Positions 1 to 20,058 of a stretch of DNA of 23,321 nt are shown here, piece after piece. Source of the DNA: a virus. The notes under the pieces were generated by a model that did no database searches, was not told the origin of the DNA, and saw only the letters and a program-made list of their open reading frames with translations. The stretch lies in UHGV virus genome UHGV-0081595. One strand, written 5' to 3'. Position 1 is the first letter of the stretch; every line of letters starts with the position of its first letter. The position numbers and the translations under genes were made by a program.

Positions 1-444
1 TCATCTGGCCTGAACTGCCGGAGGCGTAGGCCATTCAATATCTGGAGCACTGGAAGTATCGACCAGTTCCAGTGCGTCCAGATAATCCAACCACAAATTA
101 TATTGCGCCAGTTCCTCACCTTTCAGACGACCAATAGCGGCTTTACCGGGCCATTGCTTACTGTTCATGTGTTCGTTGGCCTGATTAAGCAATAATTGTC
201 TTTCTGATTCTGCCTGTTGAATAAGTTCTTCATGTGATGGTTGAGGTATTTCAGCCCATGTGGGAAAACCATTTACCCCTGCAACCCGGATTTTCCCTTG
301 TGGCGGTTTCGCCATATATTTTACAGAAATGTTATCAGGAATATCTAATGCATCAGCGGGCCATGTTCCATTTACTTCATAAGTATTTTTTAAATTAACA
401 GCATAAAATGCATTTTCCGAAGGGGAATAAATATATTGATTCAT
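1..444 (-). CDS. G: tail fibre assembly protein (gpG-like chaperone)
   Basis: 147-aa ORF immediately downstream of the tail fibre gene; stop codon at the window edge (positions 1-3); AT-rich N-terminal half as expected for a fibre-tip-specific chaperone. Confidence 0.75.
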   Translation of the reverse strand: MNQYIYSPSENAFYAVNLKNTYEVNGTWPADALDIPDNISVKYMAKPPQGKIRVAGVNGFPTWAEIPQPSHEELIQQAESERQLLLNQANEHMNSKQWPGKAAIGRLKGEELAQYNLWLDYLDALELVDTSSAPDIEWPTPPAVQAR

Positions 445-10285: not shown

Positions 10286-12052
10286 ATGAACACCACACAG
10301 ACACCCGCAGATCTCGATCCCCGTCGGCAGGCCATGCTGCTGTACTTTCAGGGATACCGCGTAGCCCGCATTGCTGAAATGCTGGGCGAGAAAGTTGCAA
10401 CCGTTCACAGCTGGAAAAAACGCGACAAGTGGGGTGACTATGGGCCGCTGGATCAGATGCAGCTCACCACCGCCGCACGCTACTGCCAGCTCATCATGAA
10501 GGAGCACAAAGAAGGGAAAGATTTCAAAGAGATTGACCTGCTGGCGCGCCAGTCTGAGCGCCACGCGCGGATCGGCAAGTTTAACAATGGTGGCAACGAA
10601 GCCGACTTAAACCCTAACGTCGCCAACCGCAACAAAGGCCCGCGCCGTCAGCCGGAAAAGAATGTTTTCACCGATGAACAGATTGAGAAGCTGGAAGAAA
10701 TCTTCCATTCCTCCATGTTCAACTACCAGCGCCACTGGTGGGAAGCCGGAAAAACCAACCGCATCCGCAACCTGCTGAAGTCACGCCAGATCGGCGCGAC
10801 CTTTTACTTTTCCCGTGAAGCCCTGATTGACGCCCTGCTTACCGGACGTAACCAGATTTTCCTTTCTGCCAGTAAGGCACAGGCTCACGTCTTTAAGCAG
10901 TACATCATCGACTTCGCCAAAGAAGTCGAAGTGGAGCTGAAAGGCGATCCGATGGTGCTTCCTAACGGGGCCACACTGTATTTCCTCGGCACCAATGCCC
11001 GCACGGCCCAGAGTTATCACGGCAACCTGTATCTGGATGAATATTTCTGGATACCAAAATTCCAGGAGCTGCGCAAAGTGGCTTCCGGTATGGCTATTCA
11101 CAAAAAATGGCGACAAACCTATTTTTCCACGCCATCCAGTCTGACACACAGTGCTTATCCGTTCTGGTCCGGTGCGCTGTTCAACCGTGGGCGCAACAAA
11201 GCCGATAAGGTGGACATCGACCTGTCCCACAGCAATCTGGCCCCCGGCCTGCTGTGCGCAGACGGGCAATACCGCCAGATAGTCACCGTGGAAGATGCGG
11301 TGCGCGGCGGCTGTAACCTGTTCGACCTCGACCAGCTACGCATGGAGTACAGCCCGGACGAATACCAGAACCTGCTGATGTGCGAGTTTGTGGACGATCT
11401 CGCGTCCGTGTTTCCGCTCAGCGAGCTGCAGGCGTGCATGGTGGACAGTTGGGAAGTCTGGACCGACTTTCATGCACTGGCGCTGCGCCCGTTTGGCTGG
11501 CGCGAAGTGTGGATCGGTTATGACCCGGCAAAAGGCACGCAAAACGGCGACAGCGCCGGATGCGTGGTGGTGGCACCGCCAGCCGTGCCGGGTGGTAAGT
11601 TCCGCATTCTTGAGCGTCACCAGTGGCGCGGGATGGACTTCCGCGCCCAGGCTGACGCCATCAAAAAACTGACCGAACAGTACAACGTGACCTATATCGG
11701 TATCGACTCAACCGGCGTTGGTCACGGGGTTTACGAGAACGTGAAAGCGTTTTTTCCTGCCGTCCGGGAGTTTGTCTACAACCCCAACGTTAAAAACGCC
11801 CTGGTACTCAAGGCCTACGACATTATCAGCCACCGCCGTCTGGAGTTTGACGCCGGACACACCGACATAGCGCAGTCCTTTATGGCAATACGTCGCGCCA
11901 CCACCGCCAGTGGCAACCGCCCGACCTATGAAGCCAGCCGCAGCGAAGAAACCAGCCACGCCGATCTGGCCTGGGCAACGATGCACGCACTGTTTAACGA
12001 ACCGCTGCAGGGCGAATCCGCCAATACCAGCAATATTGTGGAGATTTTTTGA
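10286..12052 (+). CDS. P: terminase ATPase (large) subunit gpP
   Basis: 588 aa; N-terminus MNTTQTPADLDPRRQAMLLYFQGYRVARIAEMLG...VHSWKKRDKW matches the P2 gpP pattern; stop overlaps the Q start (ATGA). Confidence 0.95.
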   Translation: MNTTQTPADLDPRRQAMLLYFQGYRVARIAEMLGEKVATVHSWKKRDKWGDYGPLDQMQLTTAARYCQLIMKEHKEGKDFKEIDLLARQSERHARIGKFNNGGNEADLNPNVANRNKGPRRQPEKNVFTDEQIEKLEEIFHSSMFNYQRHWWEAGKTNRIRNLLKSRQIGATFYFSREALIDALLTGRNQIFLSASKAQAHVFKQYIIDFAKEVEVELKGDPMVLPNGATLYFLGTNARTAQSYHGNLYLDEYFWIPKFQELRKVASGMAIHKKWRQTYFSTPSSLTHSAYPFWSGALFNRGRNKADKVDIDLSHSNLAPGLLCADGQYRQIVTVEDAVRGGCNLFDLDQLRMEYSPDEYQNLLMCEFVDDLASVFPLSELQACMVDSWEVWTDFHALALRPFGWREVWIGYDPAKGTQNGDSAGCVVVAPPAVPGGKFRILERHQWRGMDFRAQADAIKKLTEQYNVTYIGIDSTGVGHGVYENVKAFFPAVREFVYNPNVKNALVLKAYDIISHRRLEFDAGHTDIAQSFMAIRRATTASGNRPTYEASRSEETSHADLAWATMHALFNEPLQGESANTSNIVEIF

Positions 12053-13089
12053 TGGGAAAGAGTAAGAAGAACCGCACTGCGGCGACGAAACAGATCCAGC
12101 TTAAAAGTCAAACTACAGCCGAAGCATTCAGCTTCGGCGATCCCGTTCCTGTTCTGGACCGCCGAGAACTGCTGGATTATGTGGAATGCGTACAGATGGA
12201 CCGCTGGTATGAGCCGCCCGTCAGCTTTGACGGACTGGCGCGCACCTTCCGCGCTGCCGTGCATCATAGTTCCCCGATTGCAGTAAAGTGCAACATTCTG
12301 ACCAGCACCTACATCCCTCACCCGCTGCTCAGCCAGCAGGCTTTTTCGCGTTTTGTGCAGGACTATCTGGTATTTGGTAACGCCTACCTGGAGAAACGCA
12401 CGAACCGCTTCGGTGAAGTTATCGCCCTTGAACCTGCCCTGGCAAAATACACCCGACGCGGGTTAGACCTGGATACCTACTGGTTTGTGCAATACGGTAT
12501 GACCACGCAGCCATATCAGTTCACGAAAGGCAGCATCTTTCATCTGATGGAACCGGACATCAACCAGGAGATCTACGGCCTGCCCGGTTATCTTTCTGCC
12601 ATTCCGTCAGCCCTGCTCAACGAGTCCGCCACGCTGTTCCGCCGAAAGTATTACATTAACGGCAGTCATGCTGGCTTCATCATGTACATGACCGATGCTG
12701 CGCAGAACCAGGAGGATGTGAACAACCTCCGCAACGCAATGAAAAGCGCCAAAGGTCCAGGCAACTTCCGCAACCTGTTTATGTACTCACCTAACGGCAA
12801 AAAGGATGGTCTTCAGATTATCCCGTTGTCAGAAGTCGCGGCAAAGGATGAATTTCTGAACATCAAGAACGTGAGCCGGGATGACATGATGGCGGCACAT
12901 CGTGTGCCGCCACAAATGATGGGGATTATGCCGAATAATGTTGGGGGGTTTGGGGATGTGGAGAAGGCAAGTAATGTATTTGTAAGGAATGAATTATTGC
13001 CACTACAGAAGCTAATAATGGAGCTTAACTGCTGGCTCGGCCACGAGATTATACGTTTTATCCCTTACAAGCTTGAAAAGGCAACTTAA
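12049..13089 (+). CDS. Q: portal (capsid vertex) protein gpQ
   Basis: 346 aa; near-colinear with remembered P2 gpQ (DYVECV...RWYEPPVSF.GLA...RAAVHHSSPI, LEPDINQE.YGLP.YLSA, NESATLFRRKYY.NG.HAG, RNEL.PLQ). Confidence 0.95.
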   Translation: MMGKSKKNRTAATKQIQLKSQTTAEAFSFGDPVPVLDRRELLDYVECVQMDRWYEPPVSFDGLARTFRAAVHHSSPIAVKCNILTSTYIPHPLLSQQAFSRFVQDYLVFGNAYLEKRTNRFGEVIALEPALAKYTRRGLDLDTYWFVQYGMTTQPYQFTKGSIFHLMEPDINQEIYGLPGYLSAIPSALLNESATLFRRKYYINGSHAGFIMYMTDAAQNQEDVNNLRNAMKSAKGPGNFRNLFMYSPNGKKDGLQIIPLSEVAAKDEFLNIKNVSRDDMMAAHRVPPQMMGIMPNNVGGFGDVEKASNVFVRNELLPLQKLIMELNCWLGHEIIRFIPYKLEKAT

Positions 13090-13173
13090 TAAAAATTCAG
13101 ATATTATAAACAAATCAATTAATAACCATATAAATAGAAAAGTCAATTGAGCGTAGCTCAACATATCGCCAGC

Positions 13174-13193
13174 AAGGCGGGCATACCCGCCTT
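13174..13193. terminator. GC-rich hairpin between convergent Q and the cargo operon; putative intrinsic terminator
   Basis: AAGGCGGG-CATA-CCCGCCTT (8-bp stem, 4-nt loop) followed by TATTAA on the plus strand; lies between the Q stop (13089) and the stop of the 234-aa cargo gene (13196). Confidence 0.45.
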
Positions 13194-13195
13194 TA

Positions 13196-13900
13196 TTAAC
13201 GAAATTCATCATTAGATAATTGCTGAATGAGGAAGTCGGAGTAAAAATCCAGATGATTAGAATCTGAATTAATAAAAGCGCTTTTTGAAAGCTCAACAAA
13301 AGAAGGTTCCCCGTAAATCAAACAATGCAACCTAACTTTATCTATATTATATTTTTTGTTAGTAAAAATACTTTCTAGCTCTAACAATGCATTTTTTGTG
13401 GAAGTTATCTCAACCGAGGCCTTGGAGTTCCCATTTAACACAACATTGCTAACTTTAATTTTATCAATATGTAATAGACTTATTGAATGCTGTAAACTTA
13501 GATAATTTATATACTCCTTTAAATTTAAGGTGATTGAACCAAATCCAACCCTATAATTGAAATCTACACTAAGTCTATCCGTCAATTTCTTTATAGATTT
13601 AGGGGGATTAAAAATAGCCAATAAAGAGAGATTTTTAGATACGGGCTTTAATGCAAATTTTATGGTTTCATACTCTAAAAAATCTTGTTCTATCTCATCT
13701 CCCGCGGGCGATACAATAACTTCTGTACGCAATGACTTTTCAACATAAGAAGCGGAAACTTCATGTTCAGTAAAATTCACAAAAGTATAACCATAACCTT
13801 TACTTTCATCATAAGAATTACGTTTAAAATAATCAATTAGTTCAGAGAAGGTTATTGATAACTTCACTCTGCTCCACTTAATTTTATCCAGTGTTTTCAT
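13196..13900 (-). CDS. hypothetical protein, third gene of the AT-rich cargo operon
   Basis: 234-aa ORF, 8 bp downstream of the preceding gene; AT-rich, Asn/Lys/Ile-biased; no motif or family I can recognise. Confidence 0.7.
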   Translation of the reverse strand: MKTLDKIKWSRVKLSITFSELIDYFKRNSYDESKGYGYTFVNFTEHEVSASYVEKSLRTEVIVSPAGDEIEQDFLEYETIKFALKPVSKNLSLLAIFNPPKSIKKLTDRLSVDFNYRVGFGSITLNLKEYINYLSLQHSISLLHIDKIKVSNVVLNGNSKASVEITSTKNALLELESIFTNKKYNIDKVRLHCLIYGEPSFVELSKSAFINSDSNHLDFYSDFLIQQLSNDEFR

Positions 13901-13908
13901 TTGTTATC

Positions 13909-14985
13909 TCACTCATACTCTTTATTAATATCCATTATAATTGAACGCGCCGTTTTTTCAATAAGTCTTTTAAAATGATATTCTTCATCATCCGGTAATT
14001 GGCTCGGATTTTTATTATATTCTCCGGCACCTTTATATTTCCTCACCCCTCTAGAAATATATGAAAAGCTCTTAAACTCTAAAGGATCACTAAACTGAGC
14101 TTCAAAATCATAAAGATCTGGAGTAGTAGATTTATCCTTTATTCTCCATCTTATTTTCCAAATATAAAACCCTCTATTATACAAAGAATTCAACTCTTCA
14201 GATTTAAGCACCCCCTCTCCTTTCAAAGATGCTTTGCTAATATGTATTCCTGTTTCAGAATCCCCATCTTCCTCCTCCATGACAGCAGGTTTAGGATGGT
14301 AGATATAAACATCCGTAACATCATCTAAAACATATCCATCCAACCCATTGATGAGCCGCTTAAAAAATTCTGTTCTTTTATCTGCGTCATCGATGTTCGC
14401 GAGGTTGATTTCTTCTGTATCTAAAGTCGTTGCTTCTATATCTTTTTCCTTTTGTATAACCTGTTCGATAATACTTAGTAGTTTTTTATTATAAATCTCA
14501 GCTTGTTCACTATCAGGCCTACGAATTGAAAAACCATCCGAAAGGGACTCGATTTCAAAAACAGCAGTTTTCTTCTCTACTTGGTTAAATTCACTTTTAC
14601 CAAAATTGGTTGATAAGTATGTAATGCTAATTTTAATAAAATCTTTATCACTGATTACATGACATATATCATCTTCGCTTTCCAGCTGATCTTTAAGCTT
14701 ATTAGCAGCCTTAACAAGTAGTGGCTTATCAATATTATTCTTAATAACTATAGCCGTAGATTTCTCTCGCCTTAAAAAACCTCCAAATATTCCAGAAATT
14801 TTCTGGTGCAAATAATAATCATGAGTGAGCTTTGAGAAATTTTTTGCTAGTTGCTTACGCTCAGTTTTTTTTGACACCAAAATTCCACGGGATAAAAACA
14901 ATTCCACCATATCATTATCAGTGACACGTGATTGGCATAAAGCCTCGTATAAAGCTTTGTCTGTAACACTGTGTATTTCACTCAT
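13909..14985 (-). CDS. hypothetical protein, second gene of the AT-rich cargo operon
   Basis: 358-aa ORF whose ATG overlaps the stop of the upstream gene (TAATG); acidic, Lys/Glu-rich; no recognisable catalytic motif, Walker box or TM segment. Confidence 0.7.
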   Translation of the reverse strand: MSEIHSVTDKALYEALCQSRVTDNDMVELFLSRGILVSKKTERKQLAKNFSKLTHDYYLHQKISGIFGGFLRREKSTAIVIKNNIDKPLLVKAANKLKDQLESEDDICHVISDKDFIKISITYLSTNFGKSEFNQVEKKTAVFEIESLSDGFSIRRPDSEQAEIYNKKLLSIIEQVIQKEKDIEATTLDTEEINLANIDDADKRTEFFKRLINGLDGYVLDDVTDVYIYHPKPAVMEEEDGDSETGIHISKASLKGEGVLKSEELNSLYNRGFYIWKIRWRIKDKSTTPDLYDFEAQFSDPLEFKSFSYISRGVRKYKGAGEYNKNPSQLPDDEEYHFKRLIEKTARSIIMDINKEYE

Positions 14986-16049
14986 TATTTAACATCCCAT
15001 GATCTTTCTTCTGTTAAATATTGCTCTCGAGATAGAGGCACAATATATAGCTCAATAGATAATAATTTTTCCTTCATAGATTCATCATATCCCCACTGAT
15101 ATGAAAATTTTTCTATAGCTTTTATAAAATTAGTCCGTATGTGCTCACTTTTATCAATACATGCTACTCTAATTCTAATATTATTTTTTGAGTTTAATAT
15201 CTGGTAGTTAGCTAGAGTATCTAATAAATAATTAAACTCTAAGTCTGTTTTACCGGAGCGGTTGTAATAAACAATAAACCCTTCAGGATAAACCAGCTCG
15301 TCCTCCTTTTTAGCTCTATTATATTCTATTACTGGACCATGTTTAATTATCATGTAGGGGGATGTTAGAGTTTCCACTGTAGCTGGAAGATATTCTTCTG
15401 CAGTCACAACCTTATGAAGTATTAATTGAGGATAATAGAACCCATAATCATCACGCGGGAATTTATTTTCCGCAATCATTTCGTTCATATCAGCAACAAC
15501 AGACATAAGATAACTAATAGTTCGTGGCTCAATTATATGTATTTGCTGATTTTCAGATACATTTACTCTGTCTAAATTAACTGCCGCAGGTCTTTTCCCT
15601 TTTTTGGGTTTAGGAGGATAAAAATAGTCATAGAAATTATGCTTATAGTCATTATCATGATTATATACAAAAAGTAACCCTCGTACTTCACTTTTAGACA
15701 TGGTTGTCTCATAGCGACTTTTCCATACCTGACTATTCTGCGCACAATGAATAGTTTTTGCTAAGGAATCTAAAGCATTTTCAACCATTTTAGAATTTAA
15801 AGACCCTTTTGAATAACTTTTCAAATCAGTATTTAGATAAACAATTTTATTTAAGTAAGGATCTTTATAATGAAAGACAATATCAACTGGATGTGTGTGG
15901 TCTTGCGTTTTTTCCGCTGGCTTGTGTAATTCTTGTTCAGTACACGGAAAATCATGATCGGTCGGACCGTGTTGCTTCCACTTAAATCTTTCCAATAGTT
16001 TATGGGACACCAGCTTCGCCAAGTCTTCACGAGGTCCGTTTTCTGCCAT
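14985..16049 (-). CDS. hypothetical protein, first gene of the AT-rich cargo operon; weak PD-(D/E)xK-like motif near the N-terminus
   Basis: 354-aa ORF with AGGAG SD ~9 nt upstream of the ATG; residues ~50-80 read HPVD-IVFHYKDPYLNKIVYLNT-DLK, compatible with a PD...(D/E)xK nuclease core; otherwise unassignable. Confidence 0.7.
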   Translation of the reverse strand: MAENGPREDLAKLVSHKLLERFKWKQHGPTDHDFPCTEQELHKPAEKTQDHTHPVDIVFHYKDPYLNKIVYLNTDLKSYSKGSLNSKMVENALDSLAKTIHCAQNSQVWKSRYETTMSKSEVRGLLFVYNHDNDYKHNFYDYFYPPKPKKGKRPAAVNLDRVNVSENQQIHIIEPRTISYLMSVVADMNEMIAENKFPRDDYGFYYPQLILHKVVTAEEYLPATVETLTSPYMIIKHGPVIEYNRAKKEDELVYPEGFIVYYNRSGKTDLEFNYLLDTLANYQILNSKNNIRIRVACIDKSEHIRTNFIKAIEKFSYQWGYDESMKEKLLSIELYIVPLSREQYLTEERSWDVK

Positions 16050-16128
16050 GATAAGATTCTCCTTTAGTTAACTAAGAATAATACTATTGAAAAATTCACA
16101 GATTCTCTAGCTTTTTAGTTAGCGCGCG

Positions 16129-16147
16129 CTCGTATCCCCGCCACGCC
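16129..16147 (-). other. putative cos site (cohesive-end sequence of the P2/186 type)
   Basis: Minus strand reads GGCGTGGCGGGGATACGAG followed by CGCGCGCT; as I recall, the P2 and 186 cohesive ends begin GGCGAGGCGGGGAAAGCAC / GGCGTGGCGGGGAAAGCAT and P2 continues TGCGCGCT. Not verified against a database. Confidence 0.55.
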
Positions 16148-16456: not shown

Positions 16457-16867
16457 ATGGTTACGGTTGATGAATTAAAGATGAAATATCCGGACGCGAA
16501 TGCCTGGCAAGTGGGCGACAGCCCTGAACTGGCTAACGAGCTTGCAGCACTTATCAAAAAAGGGATTAAAACGGCCTCCTGCGGCTCTTATGCCTCTTAC
16601 CAGAAGGAAGAGTTTGCCCCAAGGATTGGGAGCTATAACATCATCCTTAACGGCCAGGATGTACCTGTATGCGTGACCCGGCTGGTGTCGATGCGACTGG
16701 TGCGTTTTTGTGATGTTACTGCCGAGTTCGCTCGCAAGGAAGGTGAAGGCGATTTGAGTCTTGAATATTGGCAGAGAGAGCATCAACGATTTTTTACATG
16801 TGAAGGTTACTTTTCTGACGATATGGAGCTGATTATGGAAGAGTTTGAAGTTGTTGATGTTTTGTAA
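16457..16867 (+). CDS. ASCH-domain protein
   Basis: 136 aa; pattern WQVGDSPELANELAALIKKGIKTASCGSY...YNIILNGQDVPVCVTRLVSMRLVRFCDVTAEFARKEGEGDLSLEYWQREHQRFF matches the ASCH family signature (GxKTAT... / EGEGD-SL-YW); AAAGGA SD 6 nt upstream; only plus-strand gene between cos and A. Confidence 0.8.
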   Translation: MVTVDELKMKYPDANAWQVGDSPELANELAALIKKGIKTASCGSYASYQKEEFAPRIGSYNIILNGQDVPVCVTRLVSMRLVRFCDVTAEFARKEGEGDLSLEYWQREHQRFFTCEGYFSDDMELIMEEFEVVDVL

Positions 16868-17057: not shown

Positions 17058-17291
17058 TTAATGCAGCCAGCTGTCGTCTTCCCACACCTTCTGCATAATT
17101 TTCATCACTTGTTTTCTTTCTTCATCCAGTTGCAGTCCGGTCAGTTCCACACCGTTAGAGCTACCTTTGCGGATACGAATTACCGTTTTGGGATACAGGG
17201 GGCGCAGATTGCGGTAAAGCTCGGATTCAAGGGCGTCCAAGATAGACTGGCTAATCTTCTGCTCTTTATCGATCATTATTTCAATGCGCAT
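17058..17291 (-). CDS. dinI: DinI-family protein (SOS-induced RecA modulator-like)
   Basis: MRIEIMIDKEQKISQSILDALESELYRNLRPLYPKTVIRIRKGSSNGVELTGLQLDEERKQVMKIMQKVWEDDSWL resembles E. coli DinI along its length; start at the ATG preceded by GAGGTGA; the track ORF extends 24 codons further upstream in frame. Confidence 0.8.
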   Translation of the reverse strand: MRIEIMIDKEQKISQSILDALESELYRNLRPLYPKTVIRIRKGSSNGVELTGLQLDEERKQVMKIMQKVWEDDSWLH

Positions 17292-17301
17292 AAAAGTCAC
17301 C

Positions 17302-17490
17302 TCAACTGATGACATCCATTGAGCGGTTGTATTCGTGGGTTCTGATTTTTGCCATGAGTTCATCTGTCAGTTCAGAAACCCACTGCAAAGCCAGCCCCTT
17401 CTCTTCATCACTACACTCACTAGCCGCTACAAGCTTAAGAAAAAAATCAATGCGCTGGAGCTTCAAAGACTCCAAAAAATAGTCCTGCAT
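17302..17490 (-). CDS. small hypothetical protein (62 aa) co-transcribed with the DinI-like gene; possible Tum-like SOS antirepressor component
   Basis: Internal ATG at 17490 preceded by a perfect AGGAGG SD; the longer track ORF (to 17592) would run through the LexA box and promoter; stop 11 nt before the DinI-like start. Confidence 0.55.
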   Translation of the reverse strand: MQDYFLESLKLQRIDFFLKLVAASECSDEEKGLALQWVSELTDELMAKIRTHEYNRSMDVIS

Positions 17491-17531
17491 TTTTCCTCCT
17501 ATGACACCACAAGCAATACTGTATACATAAC

Positions 17532-17551
17532 CACTGTTTATATTTACAGTA
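17532..17551. promoter_or_regulatory. LexA (SOS) box overlapping the promoter of the small-ORF/DinI-like operon
   Basis: CACTGTTTATATTTACAGTA: CTGT-N8-ACAG with an AT-rich spacer, close to the consensus TACTGTATATATATACAGTA; a perfect half-site TACTGTAT sits just upstream (17517-17524); TTTACA and TATA-type hexamers overlap on the minus strand. Confidence 0.65.
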
Positions 17552-17643
17552 TATAATAATCTTACTGATGTAAAACGTTTTTTTACGTTCATCAGCCTGA
17601 TATGCCTGGTATTATTAAGAGCACGAATTGTTAATCCGCGTAA

Positions 17644-20058
17644 TTAATACAGGTTCCGCCACTTATCATCTTCCCGCAAACGCTGGTTCCGATAGAAGAT
17701 ACGCAAGCCTGCTCCTGACGGAATACTGCCGCCGCGAAGGAGTAAATCGACCTCTTTCTCGCTACCATCAAATCCTCTGGACTTCAGTTCATAGACGAGC
17801 TGCTGACGCTGATACTCTGTAATTCGCTGTTTGTAGTCTTTACGTCGTTTCGGTTTAACCAGGCGTAATCTTGCTGCCAGTTCCCGGCGCTCTTTTTTGC
17901 TCATACTGTGCAGGTAATCGTGCAACTCCTTGTCATCCATGCGGGTGATATCCGTTCTGGTATCCCCATCAGCTGATTTGTCTTTCCCTTGTTGGTACAA
18001 ATTTTCAACAAGGGGACAGTTATTGCCACGAGTCCAAGGGGCGCAAGCGCCCTGGTCGGCTGCCGCCTCCTGAACGTCAACGGCTTTACGAACCATTTTC
18101 CACTTCACTGCATGAGTGCAGATCTTGCCCTCTGCAATGGGTGACCAGATGCCATAAATACGAATGCCGTGATCGCCATAGGCGGTCGGCTCTTCGTTGA
18201 TTTCATAAGCGGTTCTGATGAGGTGATATTTACGGGGAACCAGTACGCCGCCCTGCTTCATGATGTAGGTGGCAAAACAACCAGCATCAGCAGCAGCCAA
18301 GATGGCATCAAGGCGCGGGTTATCCAGTACCGGCGCACCTGCTTTTTTGTCCCCCTGTTGCCTTGCCGCCTGACCAGCCAGCAATCGCAGTTCACGGTAA
18401 GCCTGACGCCCCGGAATGCCAAAGAAGCGGAATTGCTGAACACGATGCAAAGACGCCCAGGCGTTCACGTATTCAGCGTTATCACGCAGAGATTTACCCG
18501 TTTCCTTGCTGATCTCGCCAGCCAGACCACGCCCGTCAATGTTCTTACTGATGTATTTCGCTATGTAGCTTGTCGGCGTTCCTTTGCGCGGGTTAATCAG
18601 CTCAGACTTAAAGCGCGGCCCCGTGTTATTGCCCAGCTCCTCGCGGTCTTCACGGATAGCAAACTTACGCAACAATGCAGTAATGGCGCGGCGGTCTTTT
18701 TTGCGCATGAAACACAACAGGTGCCAGTGAACTGTGCCGTCGTGATGCGGCTCAGCCACCCGCACGCCATACCAGCGCAACCCGGCTTTGTGCATCGCCT
18801 TACGAAATGCAGCAAACATACCGACCAGATAATCGCTGCTTTGTCTTACCGTCGCATTTGTCCAGGTCGGGTTGGGCCTGCCGTTATTTAGCGTGGAATG
18901 GAAACGTGACGGACAGGTGATGGTGTAGAAAACGGCGCAGTCACCGCGCATTTCCGCGATAAGCTCCAGACCTTTAACACAGGCCATCATCTCATTGCGG
19001 CGATGCGCAGGGTTGCTGCTGCTGGCGTTTACCACATCCTCCATGTCCAGCGTGTCGCCGTCTTCGTTCACCAGTTCATGAGAACGGAAAAACTCCAGCG
19101 ACTTACGGCGCTGCTCACGTTTATGCAACACGGCTTCATAGCTGACATAGGGAGATGCTTTTTTGCTGACAAGGCAGACAGCACGCAACTGCTCTTCCCG
19201 CCATTCGCAACGCATTTTCCATAATTTCCGGTACCACCAGTCGGCGCACAACATACGCGCCAGCGAACCCGGAATGAGTTCATAGGGCACGGGTTTACGG
19301 CGGTTTCTTTTCCGACGGAGTTGCTCAAACGCAGGCGGGATTACATCCAGACGCAGGGTTTCCGCTGCCACCCTTTCCCATGTATTGCGGATTTCTTCTG
19401 GCTTAACGTCATCGGTGGCATACAAATCGCCACAAGCGGCATCAAGGCACATACTCATATGCGCAGCTACCAGGGTGGACAGGCGTTTCACCTGATCCTG
19501 ACTCATTTCAGGCAGGATCAGCAGGCCGTCCAGCCCTTCATGGCTTGCCATAAAGCGAAAAGATGCAGATAGCTGACTGTCGCGTACATGCTCCAGTCGT
19601 TCCAGACATGGCTTAATCGTCTCACGTAAATAGCGGGAATAAGCCTTTGGCCTGCCAAGGCTGCTGAAGTATTCAATACGTTGCATCAGCGGCTTGCTGA
19701 TATGGGAAGGCTGGGCGTTGACGTCCGCCAGAATGACCATATCCGGATTAAAACGCTGCTGCTCATGCGCCAGCTTTGCCCGACTAATGAGCTTATCCTG
19801 TTCCATTTCGCGCTGGACAGGATCACGGGATTCATTAAAGAAATAACGCTCCCAGACCTGATCACTCAGCGCCTCACGGCGCAGCTGTTCCTGCTCGTTA
19901 TCGGCAGCGTACAGAGTGATCAGGTTTGAAAGCGTAGAAACCGGCGCAACTTCCACCGGGTCCAGATAAGGGTTAATGGCCTTTTTCGGGCTGTTCCATG
20001 AGAACGATGCGGCAGCTTCGTTAAAGCCGCAGCAGTTGTTCATATCGGCATGACTCAT
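17644..20058 (-). CDS. A: replication initiation endonuclease gpA (rolling-circle, HUH-type)
   Basis: 804 aa; [19 protein letters not shown] (HUH motif) and [12 protein letters not shown] (active-site Tyr motif) match P2 gpA; start overlaps the Dam stop (ATGA). Confidence 0.92.

Follow-up and report, generated by a model that had tools for sequence, protein, structure and literature searches.

Two described anti-phage systems stand closest to the locus considered here. The first, 3HP, was reported by Rousset et al. (2022, Cell Host Microbe; PMC9122126) as 'hp + hp + hp', was cloned from E. coli E1114 in plasmid pFR109, and has been described since 2022 as 'three genes with no clear predicted domain' (PMC9122126). 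The pFR109 trio, whose sequences are given in Table S2A of that paper, protects E. coli against phage P1 only, one of eight phages (PMC9122126). The second, GAPS4, consists of GAPS4a and GAPS4b (Mahata et al., bioRxiv 10.1101/2023.03.28.534373 and 10.1101/2025.09.07.674715). It is a 2:2 complex in which GAPS4b forms a ring and GAPS4a is docked on a helical globular domain of GAPS4b; it acts as a non-selective DNase set off by DNA breaks or linear DNA, and one Asp mutation in its PD-(D/E)xK motif ends defence (bioRxiv 10.1101/2025.09.07.674715). The locus in question is a three-gene block in the virus genome UHGV-0081595, which was analysed as a stretch of 23,321 nt (hereafter, the window); the predicted proteins are named Hp1, Hp2, and Hp3. 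The block is very probably a divergent member of 3HP (Rst_3HP in DefenseFinder, 3HP in PADLOC), carried as swappable portal-cos cargo of a P2/186-like prophage.

All three proteins were matched by the PADLOC models for 3HP. Hp1 aligned with PDLC03004 (E 2.7e-62, residues 10-324 on profile positions 11-304 of 333), Hp2 with PDLC03005 (E 1e-39, residues 5-348 on positions 6-343 of 359), and Hp3 with PDLC03006 (E 3.1e-14, residues 5-189 on positions 2-181 of 227). The genes are adjacent and co-oriented in the order Hp1-Hp2-Hp3, which together with the three model matches places the trio in 3HP. The gene order is that of pFR109, and the protein sizes are alike (333, 359, and 227 aa in pFR109; 354, 358, and 234 aa in the window). 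The identities obtained by BLASTP of Hp1, Hp2, and Hp3 against the pFR109 proteins 1, 2, and 3 were only 37% (333 aa, E 4e-64), 29% (346 aa, E 5e-42), and 25% (190 aa, E 6e-17), respectively, which sets the window trio apart from the validated one. Both trios are located in the P2 portal-cos-gpA hotspot and adjoin the same cos flank; however, the E1114 trio lies on the gpA side of cos and the window trio on the portal side. The position of the validated trio follows from its clone: on the portal side, the pFR109 fragment extends only ~215 nt from cos.

The three proteins are also covered by PHROG families 7059, 6531, and 5850, whose function is unknown, and RefSeq labels two or three of them 'hypothetical'. 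A local copy of Pfam-A, from which PF26115 was apparently absent, gave no significant match for any of the three, and profile searches against PDB sequences returned nothing significant for Hp1, Hp2, or Hp3. Several weak candidates were set aside as noise: the sub-threshold Pfam matches of Hp1 to SAC9_GBDL and Prophage_tailD1 (Hp2 and Hp3 were without any Pfam match), the matches of Hp3 to the TRAP1/Hsp90 N-domain (E 0.12) and of Hp2 to neurofibromin (E 0.46), both absent from the fold searches, and lone NCBIfam matches (an RNA polymerase sigma factor model, YabA, DS41_1_antiphage, and others). The papers naming Rst_3HP that were found in a literature search were all surveys, and no mechanistic study of 3HP was found among them.

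The N-terminal part of Hp1 contains a nuclease motif. Across 27 aligned sequences, that of the validated protein among them, H53-P54-x-D56 ... N73-T-D75-L-K77-S-Y was invariant, with D56, D75, and K77 retained across sequences spanning 36-83% identity. These residues follow the D ... (D/E)-x-K pattern of catalytic residues, and the motif reads as a canonical PD-(D/E)xK core. The preliminary description of the locus, made from the sequence without database searches, had reported a weak PD-(D/E)xK-like pattern in this protein, and the pattern proved genuine. More invariant residues were present in the C-terminal domain. The NCBIfam model GapS4a (NF047933) aligned with residues 15-211 of Hp1 (E 1.9e-10, 40.5 bits) and matched 22 of the 27 family members. 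Moreover, the 100%-identical cluster P0001 and all listed Hp1 homologues carry PF26115 'PDDEXK_GAPS4', and the PGAP name of Hp1 is 'PD-(D/E)XK nuclease domain-containing protein'. Hp1 (H53-P-V-D56 ... D75-L-K77) and GAPS4 (HGxD...SxK) share the same core type with other residues, and D56 would be the equivalent of the essential GAPS4a Asp.

The AlphaFold2 model of Hp2 was confident (predicted local distance difference test score, pLDDT, 86; predicted template modelling score, pTM, 0.75) and consists of an N-terminal helical domain followed by an RdgC-like body. The NCBIfam model GapS4b was matched by 14 of 53 diverse Hp2 orthologues, in every case below the curated cut-off, with a best E of 2.4e-9. 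In pFR109 Hp2, residues 14-314 were aligned with profile positions 8-329 of 355; because this spans nearly all of the profile, the homology between Hp2 and GAPS4b is full-length, and Hp2 appears to be a GAPS4b-like subunit. The model of Hp3 was very confident (pLDDT 96.6, pTM 0.89). Foldseek placed two RdgC crystal structures first for Hp3 (E 1e-5 and 2e-5; probability 1.0; template modelling score 0.52), and Iml3 and CENP-L next. According to the models, both Hp2 and Hp3 adopt an RdgC-like fold. None of the Hp3 members matched the GapS4a or GapS4b model, and Pfam gave no RdgC match for Hp2 or Hp3. The three proteins had been called unassignable, which holds for the Pfam copy, where they lack significant matches; it does not hold for Hp1, a GAPS4-type PD-(D/E)xK nuclease, or for Hp2 and Hp3 with their predicted RdgC-like fold.

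Scanning of species-representative genomes with the Hp1 alignment yielded 80 loci, found in Gamma-, Beta-, Alpha-, and Deltaproteobacteria, Cyanobacteria, Verrucomicrobia, and Bacteroidota. Iterative hidden Markov model searches were carried out on six-frame open reading frames (ORFs) over 83 loci. In 74 of these 83, the genes of the trio shared one orientation, followed the order Hp1-Hp2-Hp3, and overlapped or abutted; the nine incomplete loci all stop at a contig end before the trio completes. P2-type Q, P, or A genes were nearby in 4 of the 83 loci and absent from the surroundings of the other 79, and look-ups in Vibrio and Ideonella showed the same trio beside integrase or integrative and conjugative element-type genes. 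The trio thus forms an obligate unit moving among many kinds of mobile elements. The median identity to the window was 42% for Hp1, 34% for Hp2, and 23% for Hp3, and the same order of conservation (Hp1 > Hp2 > Hp3) was observed in 70 of 71 genomes (loci L004-L083). A word-indexed search found 250 and 278 homologues for Hp1 and Hp2 and 3 for Hp3; an exhaustive HMMER search found 330 Hp3 clusters. With hundreds of homologues for each, the genes are real.

Frameshifts or stops split or truncate Hp2 in three loci (L024:1670-2773, L057:1389-3301, and L076:8996-10109), where the system is probably in decay. L057 and L076, with interrupted Hp2, were counted among the complete loci, and L024, with split Hp2, among the nine exceptions. 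Three short contigs of metagenome-assembled genomes attributed to Lactobacillales, Bacillota, and Paceibacterota (L024, L035, and L044) encode Hp1 42-43% identical to that of the window. This value equals that of many proteobacterial loci; the contigs are probably mis-binned and no evidence for 3HP in those phyla.

Within complete E. coli genomes, the block was present at 99.8-100% identity in only 5 of 5426, and the cos-side junction (~40-55 bp) in 1212. A megablast search of 50,697 phage records matched only the ~40-bp cos flank, and the block was absent from these deposited phage genomes. In E. coli 23CRST009, a P2/186-like prophage has the same block in the interval from its portal gene to cos. 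The portal-cos slot of sister E. coli prophages was occupied by other cargo, namely a nucleotidyltransferase-domain trio, an AIPR-family gene (E. coli E423), and an ImmA/IrrE pair. The block therefore has the features of cargo of the P2-like Q-to-A hotspot defined in PMC9122126 and PMC13586616: it lies between portal Q and gene A, by cos, and is swapped in relatives. This comparison of the Q-cos interval bears out the earlier proposal of foreign, swappable defence cargo. As the validated trio lies on the gpA side and the window trio on the portal side, the hotspot has two slots, and the cos-like core is the boundary between them.

The three minus-strand genes are translationally coupled. The Hp1 stop and the Hp2 start share TAATG (1-nt overlap), 8 nt (GATAACAA) separate the Hp2 stop from the Hp3 ATG, and an AAGGAG Shine-Dalgarno sequence occurs at 16064-16059, with the Hp1 ATG 9 nt on. 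The G+C content dropped to 0.30-0.35 over positions 13001-16000; the structural genes on the left had 0.50-0.60 and the right side 0.42-0.55. For the block overall it was 33%. AT-rich cargo of mobile elements has been described as H-NS-silenced immunity loci in a 2026 preprint (10.64898/2026.09.05.749240), and the AT-rich part of the window (30-35% G+C) is cargo of the same kind. Terminase P and portal Q run towards the block, in convergent orientation. A G+C-rich hairpin separates the portal stop (13089) from the Hp3 stop and is a plausible bidirectional terminator; a terminator scan, which found 4 sites versus 1.8 expected, did not include it because it has no T-run. A promoter scan across the region gave 12 sites versus 15.1 expected, not above chance, with none in the leader of the operon. 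The transmembrane segments looked for in Hp1, Hp2, and Hp3 were not found, the maximal Kyte-Doolittle 19-residue mean being <1.0 for all. The P2 cos region of the pFD239 clone is collinear with the cos-like core, which lies ~80 bp upstream of Hp1 and is nearly identical to the cos flank of the pFR109 clone (both clones in Rousset Table S2). A search for the P2 cos 19-mer with up to 3 mismatches allowed gave no match, and the site, placed by alignment to the cloned sequences, is of the 186 or another type. The coupled minus-strand operon, the AT-rich composition, the convergence with P-Q, the hairpin, the cos-like site, and the lack of transmembrane segments had all been read from the sequence in the preliminary description, and they stand. 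The features of the locus are listed in Table 1.

Table 1. Features of the 3HP locus in the window and of the encoded proteins.
Feature	Position	Strand	Details
Hp1 gene	14985-16049	minus	354 aa, ORF list
Hp1 nuclease domain	N-terminal ~200 aa		PD-(D/E)xK nuclease domain, GAPS4a type
Hp1 C-terminal domain	C-terminal ~140 aa		conserved domain of unknown fold
Hp2 gene	13909-14985	minus	358 aa, ORF list
Hp2 N-terminal four-helix domain	residues ~7-67		followed by RdgC-like alpha/beta body, AlphaFold2 model
Hp3 gene	13196-13900	minus	234 aa, ORF list; fast-evolving third subunit, RdgC / Iml3 / CENP-L fold (predicted)
Operon leader, presumed promoter region	16050-16128	minus	read from sequence
cos-like core	16129-16147	minus	CTCGTATCCCCGCCACGCC; minus-strand reading GGCGTGGCGGGGATACGAG
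G+C-rich hairpin	13174-13193	none	8-bp stem, 4-nt loop: AAGGCGGG-CATA-CCCGCCTT
Terminase P	10286-12052		left flank
Portal Q	12049-13089		left flank; Pfam PF04860 match
ASCH-domain protein	16457-16867	plus	PF04266, E 1.4e-22; cos-to-gpA slot
DinI-like protein and small hypothetical protein	17058-17363, 17302-17592	both minus	PF06183 (DinI-like)
GpA, replication gene A	17644-20058		right flank; PF05840

The ASCH-domain gene of the window is missing from the E. coli 23CRST009 prophage with the same 3HP block; therefore, the two slots flanking cos vary independently. The DinI-like gene and the small hypothetical one adjoin gpA at the same place in the four related prophages examined. The longest ORF puts the DinI-like domain at residues 38-100, so that translation probably begins at an internal start. 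In the E423 prophage (region 4157-8154 of L086), the cos-gpA slot contains an IS5 remnant and, as a DarTG-like pair, DarT with a macro-domain protein, so that defence-type cargo is found in both slots of one phage; this prophage seems to have been rearranged, its portal and tail genes being truncated. In Erwinia aeris (L011, 3827-13476), the trio is located between a P2-type portal gene and gpA in the opposite orientation, co-directional with Q, which points to a separate insertion event at this hotspot.

From these results, the window trio is homologous to GAPS4 and probably works similarly. Taken as a whole, 3HP membership combined with a clamp-mounted DNase is the best explanation of the locus and a fairly probable one; to the narrower proposal, a three-component GAPS4 relative acting as a DNase on an RdgC-like clamp, we would give about even chances. 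Hp1 would be the effector, a PD-(D/E)xK DNase with D56, D75, and K77 as catalytic residues. The RdgC-like body of Hp2 would contribute to a ring or horseshoe, bound to DNA or threaded onto it, and its N-terminal helical domain could serve as the dock for Hp1. Hp3 may be the small partner of Hp2 in a small-plus-large heterodimer of the Iml3-Chl4 kind, closing or gating the ring; as the protein that evolves fastest, it is probably what determines specificity or what phage counter-measures are aimed at. The clamp would engage DNA when infection gives rise to free ends or breaks, and engagement would license Hp1 to degrade DNA and abort the infection. We infer the complex and its stoichiometry, the encirclement of DNA, the trigger, and the abortive DNA degradation from the relationships described above.

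A number of observations weigh against this mechanism or against the family assignment on which it is built. Anti-phage activity is on record for the pFR109 relative alone, which is 25-37% identical to the window trio, and the validated system stopped one phage (P1) of eight, whereas GAPS4 is broad. The GapS4a score of ~40 bits falls far below the NCBIfam cut-off of 270 (NF047933), GapS4b scores were at most ~27 bits versus a cut-off of 300 (NF047934) in the scans listing scores, and Hp2 of the window had no GapS4b match in the NCBIfam scan. The published GAPS4 ring works without a third protein (bioRxiv 10.1101/2025.09.07.674715), and the C-terminal domain of Hp1 has no assigned identity. Comparison of the Hp2 and Hp3 profiles by hhalign revealed no sequence relation between them, and their comparison with E. 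coli RdgC gave a probability of <1%. In view of this lack of sequence similarity, the shared fold could be convergent or differently used, and neither paralogy of Hp2 and Hp3 nor their membership in the RdgC family can be claimed from sequence.

The main alternative retains the nuclease effector and assigns another role to Hp3, that of a sensor or antitoxin-like regulator which binds a phage protein or plugs the Hp2 dimer interface and keeps Hp1-Hp2 inactive; the trigger would then be a phage protein and not DNA ends. We consider this rather unlikely. The much faster evolution of Hp3 (23% median identity against 42% and 34%) and its 3 homologues in the word-indexed search against 250 and 278 are typical of sensor or arms-race components, GAPS4 has no need of a third protein, and the narrow action of the validated system on P1 suggests a specific trigger. 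However, the predicted fold of Hp3 is that of DNA-binding ring or horseshoe subunits and of no known antitoxin or sensor, Hp3 is present in every complete locus, and the fact that one template is closely matched by both Hp2 and Hp3 speaks for a common assembly. The roles of sensor and structural partner are not mutually exclusive for Hp3.

An action like that of RdgC itself, in which the proteins coat DNA and antagonize RecA or phage recombinases, would defend mainly by blocking recombination-dependent steps such as P1 cyclisation or late replication, with Hp1 serving in secondary processing. P1 must recircularise by recombination after injection, and it is the sole phage restricted by the validated 3HP; RdgC, for its part, inhibits RecA strand exchange and binds DNA non-specifically. 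Nevertheless, this explanation is improbable: the catalytic residues of Hp1 are invariant across phyla, which implies that the nuclease is central, a single catalytic Asp mutation is enough to end GAPS4 defence, and Hp2 and Hp3 lack sequence similarity to RdgC. Two further readings, RexAB-like and restriction-modification-like, were rejected, the former for want of a membrane partner (there being no transmembrane segment) and the latter because the operon contains no methyltransferase.

Proximity to cos and the packaging genes might indicate a packaging or replication accessory serving the phage life cycle, and an AT-rich block could be non-functional junk, both very improbable. The distribution effectively refutes them, as the block is present in 5 of 5426 E. 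coli genomes versus 1212 with the cos flank, sister prophages carry other cargo instead, and 79 of the 83 loci are without P2-type Q, P, or A nearby; in addition, the ORFs are intact with all conserved residues kept, and a homologue has demonstrated anti-phage activity. The remaining possibility, that of a previously undescribed system as first proposed, has next to no chance: the lack of an assignment from the local Pfam-A, the NCBIfam cut-offs, and PDB sequence searches and the RefSeq label 'hypothetical' for two or three of the proteins are outweighed by the PADLOC 3HP matches of all three, the existing PHROG families, and the homology of all three, in the same order, to the validated pFR109 trio, which is of the very kind (three-hypothetical-protein systems reported from P2 hotspots) that the preliminary description had named as a caveat.

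The clamp-mounted DNase thus remains the preferred explanation, and its comparison with known systems indicates what is new. The locus belongs to a catalogued defence system in a catalogued P2 hotspot and would be labelled by standard defence-finder tools. The analysis adds that 3HP, an orphan since 2022, receives a testable architecture, a predicted PD-(D/E)xK effector with two RdgC-fold subunits, and that it is found widely in several bacterial phyla, in most cases away from P2-like phages. A further gain is the link from 3HP to GAPS4, whose trigger (DNA breaks) and activity (non-selective DNase) are known. In the literature searched, nothing connected 3HP with GAPS4 or either of them with RdgC, the GAPS4 preprint (bioRxiv 10.1101/2025.09.07.674715) names neither 3HP nor RdgC, and a search combining RdgC with anti-phage defence found only the RexA work and unrelated papers.

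The likeness to GAPS4 comprises the homology of the Hp1 nuclease domain to GAPS4a, the full-length homology of Hp2 to GAPS4b, and the architecture of the latter, since GAPS4b forms rings and has a helical dock for GAPS4a and Hp2 combines a predicted RdgC-like ring-subunit fold with an N-terminal helical domain. The differences are an obligatory third gene, Hp3, which has no counterpart in GAPS4, a two-gene (or fused) system; an H-P-x-D...D-x-K instead of an H-G-x-D...S-x-K motif; the C-terminal ~140 aa of Hp1, which fall outside the GapS4a alignment; and a narrow (P1) instead of a broad spectrum. Judged by the sub-cut-off scores, the third gene, and the other active-site residues, the window trio is not a member of GAPS4. 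RdgC, the recombination- and nucleoid-associated protein of E. coli (PDB 2OWL, 2OWY), shares the predicted fold of both Hp2 and Hp3; it differs in having no detectable sequence similarity to either and in being a homodimer without a partner nuclease, encoded by a chromosomal housekeeping gene. The kinetochore heterodimer Iml3-Chl4 (CENP-L-CENP-N) is eukaryotic and has no nuclease, and its likeness is architectural only. Lambda RexA of the RexAB system, an exclusion protein encoded by a prophage, has two domains in an RdgC-like fold and binds DNA non-specifically, and 3HP would be the second case, after RexA, of an RdgC fold in phage exclusion. More speculatively, and with chances somewhat short of even, 3HP and GAPS4 may form one superfamily of clamp-guided DNases, in which a PD-(D/E)xK nuclease is carried by an RdgC-fold ring threaded on free DNA ends. 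The homodimeric GAPS4b ring would be replaced in 3HP by an asymmetric Hp2-Hp3 heterodimer resembling Iml3-Chl4, and Hp3 would gate its closure and set which invading DNAs are attacked. If so, the RdgC fold, counting lambda RexA, would recur as a DNA-sensing module in the immunity of bacteria and prophages.

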